Origin: Bacillota bacterium
GTDB lineage: Bacteria > Bacillota > Limnochordia > Limnochordales > ZCTH02-B6
Reading direction: 5' to 3'
Assembly (NCBI GenBank): GCA_017578085.2
Contig: PKQR02000001.1
Span: forward strand, 7,105 to 71,104
DNA length: 64,000 bases
This document shows, piece by piece, positions 11,681 to 17,494 of this stretch. The first letter of the stretch is position 1; each line of letters starts with the position of its first letter. The notes beneath the pieces are model-generated. The model was given only the letters and a program-made list of their open reading frames with translations, was not told the DNA's origin and did not search any database. The position numbers and the translations under genes are program-made.

Positions 11681-12669
11681 GTCGACCCATCGAGGAACTG
11701 GGCGAATTCGGCCTCATTGAGCAGTTGCGCCGCTACCAGCGGGGGCGTCCAGGGCTCTTGGCCGGCATCGGCGACGACGCCGCGGTGCTGGCCGGCCCGC
11801 CGGGGTACCGGACCCTGTTCACCGCCGACATCCTGGTGGAAGGGGTCCATTTCTTCCCCGACACCGATCCGTACGCCCTGGGGCGCAAAGCGATGGCCGT
11901 CAACGTGAGCGACATCGCCGCGATGGGCGGGATCCCCACCTTTGCCACCGTCGGGCTGGGCGTGCCGCCGGGGACGAGCGCCGACCGGATCGATCGGCTG
12001 TATGCGGGCATGAGCGACGAAGCAGCCGCGTTTGGCGCCAGCATCGTCGGCGGCGACACCGTGAGGGCCCCGGTGCTTTTCATCAGCGTCGCGCTCCTGG
12101 GCGAGGTGGAGGAGCAGCGGCTGCTGTTGCGCAAGGGCGCACTGGTCGGTGACCGGATCTGCGTGACGCACCGGATCGGGGAGGCGGCCGCAGGGCTGCT
12201 CCTCTTGCAGCGCCCGGACCTCCAGGTACCCGAGGACACCCGCAGGCGCCTTGTGGACAGGCTCCTGCGTCCCACGCCCCGGGTTGAGGCCGGGCGGGAG
12301 CTGGGGCTGGGCATCGCCACGGCCGCCATCGATCTGAGCGACGGCCTCGCGGGCGACTTGTACAAGCTGTGCGCGGCGAGCCAGGTCGGAGCCATCATCG
12401 ATCTGGCCGCGCTGCCCATCTCGGACGACGTGCGCCGGGTGGCGGAGGCCGCGGGTGTGGATCCGGTGGAACTCGCCCTCAGGGGCGGCGAAGACTACGA
12501 GCTGCTCTTCACGACTTCCTCCTTGCGGGAAGGCAGCCACGTGTTGCCCCGCTCAGGCACCCCTTATACCGTCATCGGCGAGGTCGTCGATGAGTGGCGC
12601 GGGGTGCATGTGCGCCAGCCCGACGGCCGCCTGCGGCCGCTCGAGGATTCGGGGTTCCGGCACTTCTAG
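11677..12669 (+). CDS. thiL: Thiamine-monophosphate kinase
   Basis: GTG 11677 overlaps the pyrE stop (GTGA). Motifs present: GEFGLIE, GIGDDAAVL, AMAVNVSDIAAMGG and GGDT. Confidence 0.9.
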   Translation: MSRPIEELGEFGLIEQLRRYQRGRPGLLAGIGDDAAVLAGPPGYRTLFTADILVEGVHFFPDTDPYALGRKAMAVNVSDIAAMGGIPTFATVGLGVPPGTSADRIDRLYAGMSDEAAAFGASIVGGDTVRAPVLFISVALLGEVEEQRLLLRKGALVGDRICVTHRIGEAAAGLLLLQRPDLQVPEDTRRRLVDRLLRPTPRVEAGRELGLGIATAAIDLSDGLAGDLYKLCAASQVGAIIDLAALPISDDVRRVAEAAGVDPVELALRGGEDYELLFTTSSLREGSHVLPRSGTPYTVIGEVVDEWRGVHVRQPDGRLRPLEDSGFRHF

Positions 12670-13812
12670 GCGCGGCCGTGCGGCGGCGGACCGGGCCTTG
12701 AGCGGCCGGCTCTCCTCGGCGACCGCGGTGACGTATTGAATCAGGTTCTCGACCCAGCGGCGCTGGATGTCCCGCTCGTCGAACCGCAACGGCTTGGAGT
12801 TCAGTTCAAAGATCCAAAGGCGCTGCCGGTCGTCGATTCCTAGGTCCAGGGACATTTCCATGAAGTCGCGCCCGAGTGAGGCCTCCATGGCCCGCGCGGC
12901 CCGCTCGGCCAGGGCGGCCGCCCGGGCGCTCAAGATCCGGGCCGCGCCGTCGCCGAAGGCGGTGACCAGGGCTTCGTCCATGGGCATGCGTCGCCCGCCC
13001 CTGGGTACGTGGGTCGTGATCTGCCCGGGGCCGGCGACGCGGGCCGCGCCGCCGGTAAACCGCCACTGGCCGCTGGGTTCTTTTTGCACCAACAGGCGCA
13101 GGTCAAAGGGCCGGCCGTTCACCTTCGCCAGCCGGATGGCTTGCTGGGCCAAATACGGCCGGCCCCGCACCAGCCTCGTCACCGCGTCCCACAAGGCGTC
13201 CCAGGACGGCAGGTAGGCGGTACGGGTGCGGCCGAAGCTGGGGTTGTAGCGCAGCCGCCAGCGACCGCGCGCGCCGGGCGAGATCTCCATCGTGCCGTTG
13301 CCGAGGCTCCCGCCCACGGCTTTGAGGTAGACCCGCCCGTGCTCTTCCACGAACTGCCGCAGGCGGGCACCGTCCCGCAGCGGGATGGTCGCCGGCAGAT
13401 GGCCGGCCAGCTCTGGGTCGCGGCCAAGTGCCCGGCTGAGCACGGCTTTGTTGAGGTAGTGGGGGTTGAAGACGCGCCCGTCCAGCTCACGCCTGAGCCG
13501 GCGCAGGCACTCGCGGACGGAGGGCTTGCCTTCCGCGGTACGGGTCGGCACGCGGTTGTAGACGACGTCCGGCATGGGAAACCAGCGGGCATGCCACTGC
13601 CGGGGCCCCTGGGCGCTGACCCGCCAGCCCAGCACTTGCCGGCGGCGCCAGTCGACGCCGCCGGGAGAAAACACGTAGACCAAGACCCCGTGCTCGCGCC
13701 CGGCGCGGATGATCTCGGAGAAAGTGCGCCACTGGGGCCAGCGGGGTCCCCGCACCGAGGAACCGTCGGGGTAAGTCGTCAGGATGCCCAACACTGCCCG
13801 CGCCATACTCAC
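12553..13812 (-). CDS. YheC/YheD-family ATP-grasp protein (endospore coat-associated type), short form
   Basis: The 419-aa ORF has its GTG start in a GTGA overlap with the upstream paralogue. The layout is YheC/D-like: ..GILT.., FNPHYLNKAV, YLKAVGGSLGNG, and a C-terminal ..MSLDLGIDDRQRLWIFELNSKP motif typical of ATP-grasp Mg/ATP sites. The last 39 codons overlap the 3' end of thiL. Confidence 0.85.
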   Translation of the reverse strand: MSMARAVLGILTTYPDGSSVRGPRWPQWRTFSEIIRAGREHGVLVYVFSPGGVDWRRRQVLGWRVSAQGPRQWHARWFPMPDVVYNRVPTRTAEGKPSVRECLRRLRRELDGRVFNPHYLNKAVLSRALGRDPELAGHLPATIPLRDGARLRQFVEEHGRVYLKAVGGSLGNGTMEISPGARGRWRLRYNPSFGRTRTAYLPSWDALWDAVTRLVRGRPYLAQQAIRLAKVNGRPFDLRLLVQKEPSGQWRFTGGAARVAGPGQITTHVPRGGRRMPMDEALVTAFGDGAARILSARAAALAERAARAMEASLGRDFMEMSLDLGIDDRQRLWIFELNSKPLRFDERDIQRRWVENLIQYVTAVAEESRPLKARSAAARPRLEVPEPRILERPQAAVGLAHMHPAPLIDDLADDGIRGA

Positions 13813-15230
13813 GCTCGCTCCCTTTCGTCGGCGACCTGGACGGGTCCGCCGTTTTCAAAGCCGGCCAAGTAGCGGGCGAAACGCAGCGGCCGCTGCACCG
13901 ACAGGCCCAAGATGTGGGGCGAGCCCGCCTCCCGGGTCATCTGCAGGAACGGCTTGGAGTTGACCTCAATGAGCCAGATGCGCCCCAGCCGGTCGATTCC
14001 CAAGTCCAGCCCCAGCTCGCCCACGGTGCCGCTCACGGTCCGCTCGATCTCCCGCGCGCACTCCAATCCGGTCGCGTAAAGCTGCCTGAGCAGCAACCCA
14101 GCCCGCGCCCCAAATAGGCGGCGCAAGAGGGCCCCCGCCCTGGCGCCCTGGCCCCCGCGGCTCAAGTTGGCCGTGAAGCTGCCGGGTGCCGCGATGCGGG
14201 CGTACATCTTGGTCATGGCCCATTGCCCCCGCTGGGACCGCTGCATAAGGATGCGCACGTCAAAGGGACGACCGTGCCAGGTGGCCAAGGGCAGGCCCTG
14301 TTGGATGATGTAGGGACGGCCGCGAATGGCCCGGTCCACCCTCGCCGCCGCCCGGGCCAGGCTCGGCACATGCTGGACGACGGCCCTGTCTTTCAGCTGG
14401 AAAGCCAGGCTATAGCCGCTAGCGGTGCGGCGCACGCACACGATCCCGAGGCCGAGGCTGCCGCCGATGGGCTTGAAAAACACCGCCCGTCCCGCACGCA
14501 AGAAGCGTTCCAGCTGCGCCGGGCTGCTGTAACGCTCGGTTTGGGGCAGAAGCCGCGCGAGGGCGGGGCTCTTGGAGAGTTCCTGGTGCATGCGCCACTT
14601 GTCAAAGAATCCGGTCTCGTTGAACCAAGCCGGCACGTGCTTGGCCAGCCGCTCCCGGAAGCGCATGTATGGCGCGCTCCACTCGGTGCGCCGGGTCTGG
14701 ATCCGGTCGTACACCACGTCCGGAAACGGGAACACGCCGCGCCGCCAGCGGCCCAAAGGCCACAGGCCGCTGTAGGTGTAGCCGTGCACGAGGCGGCGCT
14801 CCCAGTTCACGTCCCTGGGTGCGAACATGTAGGCGCCGATGGCCAGCCGTTCGCCCCAGCGGGTAAGGGCGCGGAAGAAGGGGTCGTGTTCGCCGTAAAG
14901 GGGCCCGCGGCGCACCCGCAGGGCGAGAATCCCGACGAAGGGCCCAAGGTGCAGCATCCGCCGTTCGGGATCAAAGCGCAGGTGCAGGCGGGTCCCGTGG
15001 GGCACGTGCAGTTCGTCCAGAAGGGCCGGATCCATGACGACCTGGGGTGTCGGCTGGCCGGGCCGGTCGGGTACCACCACCGCTCGCGCCGGCTGGCGCA
15101 GCAGCCCTGCGCCGATCTGGACCTCGCCGGACGCAAGCCCGAGTCGCGCCGCCACGGAGGCCGGCACGAACACTTCACGGCGGGTGGCGTGCGGCGTCGC
15201 GCCGATGAGAACGGGGTGGACAACCGGCAT
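13809..15230 (-). CDS. YheC/YheD-family ATP-grasp protein, long form with extra N-terminal domain
   Basis: This 473-aa ORF is a paralogue of the downstream gene. Shared motifs: LGPFVGIL, FFKPIGGSLGLG and ELGLDLGIDRLGRIWLIEVNSKP. An extra N-terminal domain of about 95 aa resembles B. subtilis YheD. Confidence 0.85.
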   Translation of the reverse strand: MPVVHPVLIGATPHATRREVFVPASVAARLGLASGEVQIGAGLLRQPARAVVVPDRPGQPTPQVVMDPALLDELHVPHGTRLHLRFDPERRMLHLGPFVGILALRVRRGPLYGEHDPFFRALTRWGERLAIGAYMFAPRDVNWERRLVHGYTYSGLWPLGRWRRGVFPFPDVVYDRIQTRRTEWSAPYMRFRERLAKHVPAWFNETGFFDKWRMHQELSKSPALARLLPQTERYSSPAQLERFLRAGRAVFFKPIGGSLGLGIVCVRRTASGYSLAFQLKDRAVVQHVPSLARAAARVDRAIRGRPYIIQQGLPLATWHGRPFDVRILMQRSQRGQWAMTKMYARIAAPGSFTANLSRGGQGARAGALLRRLFGARAGLLLRQLYATGLECAREIERTVSGTVGELGLDLGIDRLGRIWLIEVNSKPFLQMTREAGSPHILGLSVQRPLRFARYLAGFENGGPVQVADERERA

Positions 15231-15274
15231 GCTGAGGGTAGTCCCCTTTCCCGTGCGGACTCCCGCGCAAAGGT

Positions 15275-15296
15275 CGAGCCCCCGGATGGGGGCTCG
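15275..15296 (-). terminator. Hairpin after cotE (weak terminator or processing site)
   Basis: CGAGCCCCC-(4 nt)-GGGGGCUCG is a 9-bp GC stem lying 18 nt after the cotE stop. On the minus strand it is followed only by ACCUUUG, so there is no real U-run. Confidence 0.35.
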
Positions 15297-15313
15297 TAAT
15301 CACCCAGCAGGGG

Positions 15314-15943
15314 TCAGCGGTTGACTTCCTCTTTAAGCTCTTCGTCGATGCCGGCGTCCAGCTCGTCGTCGACCAGGTCATCGTCGAACTCGTCGTCCAA
15401 CTCGCTGTCCATGATCTCCCAGAGTTCCAGCGTCTTCTTGTCGTCGCCGCCGGACCCGACGCCCGCGTATACCGGCACCCACAGCGTGGTTTCACCGATG
15501 ACCTCGGCCGCGTACCCGTCCTCCACCAGCACCTGCACGACGCCGTCCGCGTCCAGTGCGATCTCCCGGGCGCGCGGCTGGCGGGTGCACGCCACGCGGC
15601 ACTCAGGGTGGAGCACCGCACCGGCGGAGCCGGTCAAATACTGCACCGGCAAATGCTCGTCGAACTCCACCGACTGGACCGCAACCGCCGTATGGACCCG
15701 GCCGCGCCCGGAGTCGCTCCCGTCGCCGGTGCCCGTGTAGGCGTACCAGACGTGGATGTCGTAGGAGCCTTGTACGGCCACCGCGCCGCCGCTGGTCAAG
15801 ACCGCCGTGACCCGGTGGTTGGTGATGCGGCACCCGAGCAGGTCCTCGGGGTGGAATTTGGTCCGGAAACGGTGGGTGCGCACAAAGCCCCGCTTGCCCC
15901 GCGCACAGACCGCCTTGACAAAAATCTCCCGCAAGGCGCTCAT
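15314..15943 (-). CDS. cotE: Outer spore coat morphogenetic protein CotE
   Basis: The 209-aa sequence aligns along its whole length with my memory of B. subtilis CotE (MS.YREI..KAV.A.GK..; ..ILG..I.NH...; Y.I.VWY.Y; AEV.GET). It has the characteristic highly acidic C-terminal tail. A strong RBS AGGAGGAGGAG lies upstream. Confidence 0.88.
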   Translation of the reverse strand: MSALREIFVKAVCARGKRGFVRTHRFRTKFHPEDLLGCRITNHRVTAVLTSGGAVAVQGSYDIHVWYAYTGTGDGSDSGRGRVHTAVAVQSVEFDEHLPVQYLTGSAGAVLHPECRVACTRQPRAREIALDADGVVQVLVEDGYAAEVIGETTLWVPVYAGVGSGGDDKKTLELWEIMDSELDDEFDDDLVDDELDAGIDEELKEEVNR

Positions 15944-15979
15944 GAGCTTTTCACTCTCCTCCTCCTGGCTGGACCTTGG

Positions 15980-15990
15980 TGTATGTTATG
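15980..15990 (-). promoter_or_regulatory. Possible mother-cell (sigma-E/sigma-K type) -10 element upstream of cotE
   Basis: The minus strand reads CATAACATACA. This fits both CATA---TA (sigma-K -10) and CATACA (sigma-E -10 core). An AC lies 17 nt upstream. It sits about 20 nt upstream of the cotE RBS. The call is motif-only. Confidence 0.25.
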
Positions 15991-16015
15991 GAGGCGGGGC
16001 GAAGGGTGTTCCGGT

Positions 16016-17494
16016 TCAGCCGGCCAGCCACCGCCGCTTCAAATCAACCCGCTCGTTCCACCGGCGCTCCTCCGCCACCATCTGGCGGATCAGCTCGATG
16101 TGCTGGCGGAACTCCTGGAACGTGGGCGCCTGTTCCAGGTCCCGCCAAATTTGCAGGAAGCATGGCCGCAAGGCCGGCTTGTCGGCTTGGTAGAACGCCC
16201 GCTGGTTGGCCAGCGACAAAAAGACGTTGCGGCGGAGCAGGGGGTAGTCGGTGGCTACCACCTTGGCCAGGCACAGCACCGCCTGCGCGTACTGGGGTGA
16301 GATGAGCCAGCTGCCGGGGGTGCGGTACTCAAAGCCTCCATGGGGCTGCGAGCGCCAATCGCCGAGGAAACCATAGCGGGGGCGCCGCAGGCGGGAGCTC
16401 TTGGGGTTCTCCAGGAACAGCACCGGCAGGGCCAAGTAGTTGTCCAAGGCCTGGAGCAGGTCGGTGGTAAGCCGGATGTTGCTGAAGTGGACGTGGCCGC
16501 CGATGGTGAAGCGCCTGAGCGCGGTGCCGCCGGCTTCAAAATTGATCCGGTAGCCCCGCACGATGCTGGCCGCCCGGGCGATAGCCCGCCGCAAATTTTC
16601 CACGAGCTGCAGGGGGTCTGGACTTGGGTCAGGGCGAACTTCGGCCAGCGGGTAGATGAGAACCCCGTTGCGCATGAAGCAGGCGCGGTCGAGCCCCACC
16701 GTCCCAAACCGGCTGAAAAAGCGGGAGGCGCTCACCGTGCGGCCGCTGATGCGGCTGCGCAGGATGAACTCGGGGTCTGCTCCCAAGACCACTTCGCGGC
16801 CGGGATTGTGGCCCACCGCCGTCGCGCACGCGTCGGCCACCGCGGCCACGTAGGTTTCCATGGCGTGGGCCCACCGGCGGGCCAGGCGCGCATCCAGGGC
16901 CGGCGCGGGCACGACCCGCACGACGGCCAACTGGCCTGAAGAGGTGACGCCGATGTCCACGGCGCCGAAGTGGAGGCCCAGCGCATAGCACGCCCGCCGG
17001 CCCAGGTTGCGCAGGCGGGCCAAGAGGCGGGCGCCGCCGGAAAAGGAGTGGCGCAGGCGCCGGCCGGACCATTGCAGCACGGCCAGGGTGCGCAGGTCAA
17101 AGACATGCACGCGCCAGCGGGGTTCGACGCCCGGGGCGGCGGGGATGTTGTTCAACCGCAGGATCGCGGCCGCGTCGGGACCGATGGCGTTAAGGATAGC
17201 CTCCCGGGCGTTGACGACCCACAAGCCGTCGTCGCGCCCGTGGGTGGCGCCCCAGCGAAAAACGCACGTCCAGTCTTCTGGCGGGAGATCCTGGGAAAAG
17301 ACAAAGCCGGGCAGACGCTTGGCCAAGGCCGGGTGGGGCGCCCGGTCCCCAATCAGCACGAGACAGCGCAAGGGGGAGAACCTCCCCGAGTCGGGCGTGG
17401 TCGGTGGTACCACAATATGCGGGACGGCGGGGGGATGCAAATCCTGGGGCGTCGAGGAAGCGTCCGCGGCAAGGGATCGCGTCCTTGAGTGCAA
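16016..17494 (-). CDS. Fusion protein: ATP-grasp-like N-terminal module plus phiEco32-like COOH-NH2 ligase (amidoligase, glutamine-synthetase fold) C-terminal module
   Basis: The maximal ORF is 492 aa from TTG 17494. A better start is TTG 17371, which lies 9 nt after GGGGAGG and gives MRCLVLIGDR... The N-terminal half has ATP-grasp C-lobe-like strings (RVHVFDLRTLAV.., LGLHFGAVDIGVTSSGQLAVVRV). The C-terminal half has GADPEFILR.., AEVRPDPS, IGGHVHFS, LDNYLALP and GGFEYRTPGSWL, which I recognise as the COOH-NH2 ligase type-2 family. Confidence 0.8.
   Translation of the reverse strand: MHSRTRSLAADASSTPQDLHPPAVPHIVVPPTTPDSGRFSPLRCLVLIGDRAPHPALAKRLPGFVFSQDLPPEDWTCVFRWGATHGRDDGLWVVNAREAILNAIGPDAAAILRLNNIPAAPGVEPRWRVHVFDLRTLAVLQWSGRRLRHSFSGGARLLARLRNLGRRACYALGLHFGAVDIGVTSSGQLAVVRVVPAPALDARLARRWAHAMETYVAAVADACATAVGHNPGREVVLGADPEFILRSRISGRTVSASRFFSRFGTVGLDRACFMRNGVLIYPLAEVRPDPSPDPLQLVENLRRAIARAASIVRGYRINFEAGGTALRRFTIGGHVHFSNIRLTTDLLQALDNYLALPVLFLENPKSSRLRRPRYGFLGDWRSQPHGGFEYRTPGSWLISPQYAQAVLCLAKVVATDYPLLRRNVFLSLANQRAFYQADKPALRPCFLQIWRDLEQAPTFQEFRQHIELIRQMVAEERRWNERVDLKRRWLAG

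Follow-up and report, generated by a model that had tools for sequence, protein, structure and literature searches.

A conserved gene neighbourhood of cotE with predicted ATP-grasp and COOH–NH2 ligases in Limnochordales and other spore-forming Bacillota, a candidate amide-ligase system of the spore coat

Few biological structures are as resistant as the spore coat. We know of no ATP-dependent post-translational modification that has been demonstrated for a spore-coat protein, and to our knowledge no reaction has been assigned in about 20 years to the widely conserved coat proteins YheC and YheD. The closest described system is a computational one: Iyer, Abhiman, Burroughs and Aravind reportedly defined in 2009 the families PF14398 (YheC/D) and PF14395 (type 2 COOH–NH2 ligases) and are said to have predicted a gene neighbourhood of YheC/D, COOH–NH2 ligase and CotE. 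The Pfam texts of PF14395 and PF14398 presumably describe this neighbourhood as well, that of PF14395 with YheC/D-like ATP-grasps and CotE and a role in spore-coat biosynthesis. In Bacillus subtilis, YheD sits in the coat's basement layer (PMC7725329). Here we analyse a 64-kb stretch of DNA (~68% G+C; hereafter the window) from a Bacillota bacterium of the order Limnochordales (ZCTH02-B6; contig PKQR02000001.1 of assembly GCA_017578085.2, positions 7,105 to 71,104), in which a four-gene cluster unites the three families. We read this cluster as part of a conserved, mother-cell-expressed and spore-coat-associated amide-ligase system that is inherited with cotE, a reading that we hold with about even confidence. 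As in the neighbourhood attributed to Iyer and colleagues, the three families are adjacent and co-oriented, and the prediction of peptide ligation is shared; the Limnochordia version differs in its order (i.e. ligase–cotE–YheD–YheC) and in its insertion between pyr/thiL and pur genes.

The cluster consists of four co-oriented genes on the minus strand that encode, in order of transcription, a type 2 COOH–NH2 ligase with a degenerate ATP-grasp-like N-terminal domain (451 residues, 16016–17371), a homologue of the outer-coat morphogenetic protein CotE (209 residues, 15314–15943), a long YheD-like ATP-grasp ligase (473 residues, 13809–15230) and a short YheC-like ATP-grasp ligase (419 residues, 12553–13812). 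In profile searches each protein matched the family predicted for it by an earlier reading of this DNA from its letters (the sequence-only reading). The ligase matches PF14395 (301.8 bits versus a cut-off of 25, E = 4.2e-90) over profile positions 1–252 of 254, at residues 237–489 of the maximal open reading frame (ORF); CotE matches PF10628 (93.5 bits versus 25, E = 1.4e-26), with residues 4–192 on profile positions 2–176 of 177; and the long and short ATP-grasps both match PF14398 (246.6 bits, E = 3.1e-73, at residues 202–455, and 220.8 bits, E = 2.3e-65, versus 26.8). A search of the cluster proteins against NCBIfam returned no informative family. The four ORFs, as well as the GTGA shared by the two ATP-grasp genes, in which the start GTG of the short gene overlaps the stop of the long one, are present as the sequence-only reading had described them. 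That reading extended the ligase gene to 17494, the end of the maximal ORF; the gene stands, but not its 5′ end. The maximal ORF is over-extended by 41 codons relative to database gene calls (P0027, 451 residues), 25 of 25 aligned homologues start at the equivalent of MRCLVL, and the window has a TTG start at 17369–17371 preceded by the ribosome-binding site GGGGAGG (17381–17387, minus strand), which was read in the sequence and is kept in the alignment of upstream regions. Because database calls and homologues start 41 codons later, at a TTG behind a ribosome-binding site, we take the gene as ~16016–17371, with its start probably at 17371.

We then examined how far this linkage extends. One genome per species (GTDB representatives) was scanned with an alignment of 25 diverse ligases as query, i.e. 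the search was ligase-seeded; relatives were detected in at least 563 stretches, and 80 loci were retained, to which all locus counts refer. CotE, YheC/D and ligase were detected in these loci with locally built hidden Markov models, within 10 kb, and genes separated by less than 400 bp were counted as directly adjacent. CotE and/or YheC/D occur within 10 kb of the ligase in 77 of the 80 loci, which rules out chance adjacency, and are directly adjacent in 76. CotE is present in 40 loci (directly adjacent in 26), YheC/D in 60, and both, i.e. all three families, in 23. These loci span Limnochordales, Alicyclobacillaceae, Paenibacillaceae, Thermoactinomycetaceae, Thermincola and Syntrophomonadaceae. 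All-versus-all clustering of the ORFs within 7 kb of the ligase revealed no further cross-lineage family (e.g. a substrate peptide, a transporter or a peptidase); the other large neighbour clusters are antisense shadow ORFs or lineage-specific genes. Ligase, YheC/D and CotE are the only families that are conserved together across lineages.

Gene order varies among the taxonomic groups. The closest relatives of the window are metagenome-assembled Limnochordales, in which the CotE homologues are named CotE; the window ligase is 100% identical to that on a contig of the Limnochordales metagenome-assembled genome (MAG) SMAG_U7113 (L011). Matches of 100% and 97% place the organism in this order. 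The same four-gene cassette surrounds CotE homologues with 82%, 65% and 60% identity, and in more distant Limnochordales its flanks are wholly different, as it lies there between genes for an NFACT protein and a xanthine/uracil permease. A cassette that stays unchanged amid different flanks indicates that the module moves as a unit. With L for ligase, E for CotE and Y for YheC/D, the order is L-E-Y-Y in Limnochordales, E-Y-Y-L-Y(-Y) in Alicyclobacillaceae (Effusibacillus, Tumebacillus, Kyrpidia and Alicyclobacillus), E-E-Y-Y-Y-Y-L in Thermincola-type clusters, E-L in Paenibacillus, Brevibacillus, Ammoniphilus and Thermoactinomycetaceae, and Y-Y ... Y-L, without CotE, in Syntrophomonadaceae. 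The linkage that the sequence-only reading had noted between cotE and amidoligase genes is therefore kept over several families of spore-forming Bacillota while flanks and orders change, and its survival through rearrangement over so wide a phylogenetic span is strong evidence for functional coupling.

The ligase separates cotE from mutS–mutL in 16 Bacilli loci, with a MiaB-type radical-SAM gene upstream of cotE (L020, L034, L041, L045, L048, L052, L061, L063, L066, L068, L069, L072, L076, L080, L081 and L088; e.g. L066:8683-17798), and the Alicyclobacillaceae loci of this type additionally hold YheC/D genes. We take the cotE neighbourhood of B. subtilis to be ymcB–ymcA–cotE–mutS–mutL, in which case the Bacilli loci have the same arrangement with a ligase between cotE and mutS. 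According to their locus tags, B. subtilis cotE (BSU17030) and yheC/yheD (BSU09770/80) are unlinked (PMC517825), consistent with the sequence-only reading, which had placed them apart. The simplest reading would be that the full cassette is ancestral at the cotE locus, and that the B. subtilis lineage has lost the ligase and carries yheCD elsewhere.

Some loci depart from these patterns. In one Clostridia MAG cluster (L018:7014-11329), two ligase paralogues and five YheC/D genes are interleaved, and the second ligase copy of MAG Ess09-15 (L071:9530-11392) is an orphan that lacks neighbouring CotE or YheC/D genes. In 17 loci, mostly of Syntrophomonadaceae (e.g. L059:4087-5229), an HtrA-like protease of the serine type (Trypsin_2 + PDZ) is encoded no more than 500 bp away from genes of the system, and at L019:6374-7705 it additionally has a Cu_amine_oxidN1 domain; this proximity may be lineage-specific synteny. 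A divergent CotE or another substrate gene hidden between the gene pairs of Syntrophomonadaceae was considered and rejected, as the interval holds the HtrA-like protease, PfkA, a membrane protein and YchF.

The two YheC/D proteins of the window differ in domain content. The long YheD-like protein consists of an extra, putative N-terminal β-barrel of ~95 residues, a pre-ATP-grasp domain and an ATP-grasp domain; the short YheC-like protein has no N-terminal barrel, and its C-terminal ~50 residues are of low complexity and poorly conserved. An AlphaFold2 model of the long protein from a deep alignment (predicted local distance difference test, pLDDT, 91.6; predicted template-modelling score, pTM, 0.90) has 561 PDB matches at E <= 1e-3, headed by RimK, GshB, Ddl and LysX. 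The best match is RimK (5zct/5zk6/4iwx; E 5e-12 to 6e-11, template-modelling (TM) score 0.67–0.70), including the RimK–RpsF complex, followed by GshB, LysX/ArgX (TM up to 0.74, solved with LysW), PsnB and D-Ala-D-Ala ligases. RimK, GshB and LysX/ArgX with LysW all attach amino acids to the carboxylate of a protein or peptide. The modelled fold of the long protein is that of an ATP-grasp. Residues 1–97 are β-rich and form two similar halves (V-x-[VL]-P-x-x-[LV]-A-x-x-L-G-L ... G); a profile of this domain resembles the Cdc48-N, PduL and MazE/AbrB barrels below threshold (E 0.02–0.08), and the domain may tentatively be regarded as a protein- or peptide-binding cradle-loop barrel of the Cdc48-N/AbrB type.

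Catalytic residues are preserved in these proteins. Among 30 homologues, K211, K253, G257/S258/G260, Q310, D324/R326, R345, N355, G359, E405/D409 and E422/N424 are invariant, and the ATP-grasp constellation (two Lys, a Gly-rich loop, Q, D-x-R, R...N/H...GG and D...E-x-N) is kept in 161 of the 161 YheC/D paralogues of the 80 loci. The window proteins carry the signatures KKGSGQDRQRNGEDEN (long) and KKGSGQDRQRHGEDEN (short), which are intact save for an N-to-H class difference. Judged by these residues, no obvious pseudo-enzyme is found among the 161 paralogues. The paralogues split at one position of the pocket, with TxNLSRGG in 86 copies and TTHVPRGG in 74; there are one to five per cluster, and most clusters hold both N-type and H-type proteins. 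In the window the long gene is of the N-type (TANLSRGG) and the short gene of the H-type (TTHVPRGG). These two pocket classes suggest two substrate specificities that would work in succession.

The ligase combines an N-terminal, degenerate ATP-grasp-like part of ~190 residues with a C-terminal part of ~255 residues that has a glutamine-synthetase (GS)/GCS2-like fold. Searches of the PDB by sequence, with the long YheD-like protein and with a ligase profile, gave no meaningful match, and fold searches were therefore used. With an AlphaFold2 model from a deep alignment (pLDDT 91.3, pTM 0.92), Foldseek found GS and YbdK (1r8g, 1tt4; E ~1e-5) and, separately, the ATP-grasps PsnB, LysX and Ddl; LysX/ArgX fit the N-terminal domain. 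D199/E201, E244/R246, H293/H295, E321, R329, R340 and E348/R350 are invariant in 25 ligases; these Asp/Glu, His and Arg residues would bind metals, ATP and the carboxylate as in other GS-fold ligases. Sequence and model together mark the C-terminal domain as a GS/GCS2-fold carboxylate–amine ligase with intact active-site residues and predicted activity, in agreement with the glutamine-synthetase-fold ligase of the sequence-only reading. Among the relatives in phages are large ATP-grasp proteins as well as type 2 ligases that stand alone.

The sequence-only reading counted three ATP-grasp modules in the cluster. Two are intact; the third, the N-terminal domain of the ligase, keeps the fold but has lost the catalytic residues. 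It aligns weakly but in register with the C-terminal lobe of the YheD-like protein (hhalign E 0.0017), GLDLGID...IWLIEVNSKP of YheD corresponding to GLHFGAVDIG...AVVRVVPAP of the ligase; the Mg-binding Glu and the Asn of the E-x-N motif are replaced, and there is no conserved Lys. A Pfam search with the isolated N-terminal domains of the ligase and the long YheD-like protein gave no match. The ligase domain is a degenerate ATP-grasp, probably with a docking role, and the cluster is thus predicted to encode one GS-fold ligase and three ATP-grasps, two of them active and one degenerate. The invariance of catalytic residues in 25 ligases and 161 YheC/D proteins argues for real catalysis.

The recurrent partner of these enzymes, CotE, has a distinctive C-terminus. 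The window protein, for which 26 close homologues were found, ends in a strongly acidic tail (DSELDDEFDDDLVDDELDAGIDEELKEEVNR) with 17 Asp or Glu in its last 31 residues. An acidic tail is present in all 45 CotE homologues of the loci except the first copies of three tandem pairs. These pairs belong to the Thermincola-type clusters (L043:2576-3875, L044:2063-3292 and L057:2669-3897), which have two CotE paralogues in tandem: the first is tail-less, its end lying right behind the conserved core, and the second is tailed.

We also analysed possible expression signals. The −10 consensus of B. subtilis σK promoters is CATAnnnTA. Counting both strands, this motif occurs once in the window, at 15982–15990 on the cotE strand, ~40 nucleotides (nt) upstream of the cotE ATG; because chance alone would yield ~1.5 copies over the full window, the position of the motif rather than its occurrence is informative. 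It is part of a σK-type promoter-like element on the minus strand (15982–16010) that consists of AACACCC (16004–16010), 13 nt and CATAACATA (15982–15990). The element is kept, with the pattern AC-N17-CATAnnnTA, in 11 of 11 distinct Limnochordales loci, and Bacilli-type loci conserve a σE-like GCATACAnnT upstream of cotE. A second element lies 5′ of the ligase gene (17411–17438, minus strand): GCATCC (17433–17438), 13 nt and CATATTGTG (17411–17419), which has one mismatch to CATAnnnTA (σK/σE-type). The pattern GCAyC-N14-GCATAnTGT is kept upstream of the ligase in 10 Limnochordales regions, and three more distant loci (L003, L006 and L016) have the perfect motif CATAGTGTA. Both elements may act as mother-cell promoters. 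A scan of the cluster for canonical σ70 promoters and intrinsic terminators found nothing.

A GC-rich stem-loop (CGAGCCCCC-atcc-GGGGGCTCG, 15275–15296, minus strand) begins 18 nt past the cotE stop. The 87-nt region between cotE and the ATP-grasp genes, of which it is a part, folds at −42.4 kcal/mol in RNAfold, with modest statistics (z = −2.7), and a hairpin of unrelated sequence occurs at the same position in most Limnochordales loci. It has no U-tract and could possibly be a partial or non-canonical terminator, an attenuator of a high-GC type or an mRNA-stabilising hairpin. In B. subtilis, cotE is transcribed from P1 (σE) and P2 (σK), and yheC/yheD belong to the σE regulon and are boosted by SpoIIID (PMC517825). 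From these signals it seems reasonable to suppose that the entire cassette is expressed in the mother cell, with an excess of CotE.

The cluster interrupts a plus-strand array of pyr/thiL and pur genes, and our assignments of the flanks agree with the sequence-only reading on this point. On one side lie pyrC (dihydroorotase), pyrF (orotidine monophosphate decarboxylase), a pyrE-like phosphoribosyltransferase gene and a thiL-like AIRS gene, and on the other purB (adenylosuccinate lyase), purC (SAICAR synthetase) and purL (FGAM synthase). The thiL-like gene (plus strand) converges with the short YheC-like gene (minus strand), and their 3′ ends share 117 bp (12553–12669); L001 and L003 show comparable convergent overlaps, of 98 bp and 71 bp.

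The folds, catalytic residues and conserved linkage all support the ATP-dependent ligation proposed by the sequence-only reading, and lead us to suggest a chemistry and a target. The substrates may be protein-bound carboxylates in the assembling coat, a proposal whose chances we put at roughly one half. It is favoured because (i) the nearest structural relatives extend protein carboxylates (RimK on S6 and LysX on LysW); (ii) the recurrent partner is a structural protein; and (iii) the module has no conserved companion gene for a transporter or carrier. The leading candidate for the target is CotE itself, through its Asp/Glu-rich C-terminal tail, because it is this recurrent partner and because the CotE proteins in the clusters carry long acidic tails, apart from the first tandem copies; we nevertheless put this forward only tentatively. 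Each enzyme would activate a carboxylate with ATP, through an acyl-phosphate intermediate as in RimK, GshB and GS, and then join it to an amine. The acceptors would be the CotE tail or coat proteins recruited by CotE. The GS-fold ligase could act first and form a side-chain amide (at a γ- or β-carboxyl), after which the N-type and H-type ATP-grasps would add further amino acids, with the dead ATP-grasp domain and the N-terminal barrel as possible docking or substrate-recognition modules. The σK/σE-like motifs and the hairpin behind cotE would provide sporulation-specific expression with more CotE than enzyme. Taken furthest, this scheme would yield a branched amino-acid or oligopeptide code on the CotE tail or on CotE-recruited proteins that tunes outer-coat assembly by analogy with tubulin polyglutamylation, which we consider rather unlikely.

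Several observations weigh against modification of coat carboxylates in general and of CotE in particular. About 37 of the 80 ligase loci, mainly in Syntrophomonadaceae, have YheC/D but no CotE within 10 kb; CotE is hence not an obligatory partner and cannot be the universal substrate. CotE of B. subtilis works without this ligase. The extreme C-termini of the CotE proteins are not conserved (...EEVNR, ...NVSH, ...HWVR and ...DDLD), unlike the Glu-Glu end of S6. The promoter elements are motif matches, and the same caution extends to the hairpin and the barrel, given their modest and sub-threshold scores. A literature search for the biochemistry of any member of the YheC/D or PF14395 families found none.

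The main alternative is that the enzymes assemble a non-ribosomal oligopeptide or poly-amino acid, either free or on a non-protein spore component (e.g. cortex peptidoglycan or a coat glycan). They would then follow a logic like that of glutathione (a GCS-type ligase and then GshB-type ATP-grasps), cyanophycin or poly-Glu, and CotE would be merely co-regulated and provide the layer for deposition. Fold comparison speaks on both sides of this possibility, as the best matches include GshB for the long YheD-like protein and YbdK/GCS2 for the ligase, but RimK, which modifies a protein, ranks first for the long protein, also as the complex with S6. The same holds for gene content: one to five ATP-grasp paralogues and one or two ligases per cluster would suit the stepwise assembly of a defined peptide, and many ligase loci have no CotE, yet the tightest partner besides YheC/D is the structural protein CotE, directly adjacent in 26 loci, and the module is not accompanied by any conserved transporter, carrier or polysaccharide gene. 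The extra barrel of the long protein, of a kind that usually binds proteins or peptides, is a weak further point against this alternative, whereas the Pfam family text, which we take to speak of 'cell wall modification and spore coat biosynthesis', would suit it. On balance we regard this alternative as possible but doubtful.

It is more improbable, in our view, that ATP-grasps and ligase link coat proteins to one another through isopeptide (Lys to Asp/Glu) or ester bonds in the manner of graspetide enzymes (PsnB and MdnC), which bond side chain to side chain, and so feed the insoluble coat fraction organised by CotE. Spore coats do hold a large crosslinked, insoluble fraction, and the CotE tails offer many Asp/Glu acceptors. 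PsnB, MdnC and other ATP-grasps of RiPPs (ribosomally synthesised and post-translationally modified peptides) rank as strong fold matches for both models; they are, however, outscored by RimK, GshB and LysX, a GS/GCS2-type ligase is foreign to known graspetide systems, and no small precursor or leader-peptide gene is conserved. That the proteins are structural coat components whose enzymatic function was lost, or that the synteny is a neutral relic uncoupled from cotE, seems to us very improbable. We know of no strong yheC/yheD phenotype, and the separation of cotE from yheCD in B. subtilis would fit such a relic. Conserved coat 'enzymes' have also been described as 'not necessarily active' by Galperin and colleagues (bioRxiv 10.1101/2022.02.25.481979). 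Against this stand the catalytic core that is invariant in 161 ATP-grasp paralogues and the GS-type residues in 25 ligases, and neutral synteny does not account for a linkage that has outlasted rearranged orders and new flanks in several families.

In brief, the cluster appears to be a Limnochordia instance of a computationally predicted and experimentally uncharacterised system. In view of the reported earlier prediction, its novelty is limited and lies below the estimate of the sequence-only reading. A literature search linking CotE with amidoligases or ATP-grasps found no experimental work, and nothing beyond YheC/YheD listed as coat proteins. The split into N-type and H-type paralogues, the dead ATP-grasp domain, the N-terminal barrel, the promoter motifs and the cotE–ligase–mutS synteny may be new details. 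Tying RimK-like and GS-fold ligase genes to cotE, which encodes the organiser of the outer coat, yields a testable hypothesis, i.e. ATP-dependent ligation of amino acids onto coat carboxylates. The four-gene Limnochordales cassette and the two-gene cotE–ligase pair in the cotE–mutS locus of Paenibacillus are simple model clusters for it. If true, spore biology would gain a new class of crosslink or post-translational modification, and two families would receive a first activity, PF14398 and, with members in phages too, PF14395.

We finally compared the cluster with better-known systems. The ATP-grasp of the Klebsiella CfmP/FimA system is TupA-like and unrelated. For graspetides, neighbour clustering with a cut-off of 70 residues, which smaller peptides could escape, gave no conserved family of small ORFs beyond antisense shadows. 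The type 2 ligases of phiEco32-like phages share the Pfam family of the ligase C-terminal domain, and the structural matches include the ligase of Salinivibrio phage CW02 and phage ATP-grasps; the phage proteins are, however, mostly standalone (~270 residues) and have no CotE or YheC/D context. Glutathione synthesis (GshA/YbdK-type enzymes with GshB, or the fused GshF) likewise pairs a GS/GCS-fold ligase with a GshB-like ATP-grasp. In the present cluster, by contrast, the ATP-grasp fused to the ligase is N-terminal and predicted to be catalytically dead, the active ones are separate genes, and the genomic context is sporulation rather than thiol metabolism.

Three systems that act on proteins come closer to the proposed function. 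LysX/ArgX are ATP-grasps (TM up to 0.74 to the YheD model) that join a substrate to the C-terminal Glu of the small acidic protein LysW; LysW, however, is a carrier in Lys/Arg synthesis, and no genes of such a pathway are conserved with the module. Tubulin tyrosine ligase and its relatives (TTL/TTLL) are ATP-grasps that modify the Glu-rich C-terminal tails of a lattice-forming structural protein, with separate initiating and elongating enzymes, and some distant YheC/D homologues carry precomputed PF03133 matches; the window proteins have no PF03133 match at E <= 0.01 and no microtubule-binding domains, so that the analogy is functional only. The system of RimK, a poly-α-L-glutamate ligase, and ribosomal protein S6 differs from the cluster in several respects: identity is 18–20%, the window proteins belong to another Pfam family and have no RimK Pfam match, CotE lacks the conserved terminal Glu-Glu, and the cluster has several paralogues, a GS-fold ligase and an extra N-terminal domain. 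RimK nevertheless gives the best fold match of the long YheD-like protein and has in common with it the catalytic K, D-x-R, R...N...GG and D...E-x-N motifs, and it is an ATP-grasp that adds amino acids to the acidic C-terminus of a protein.

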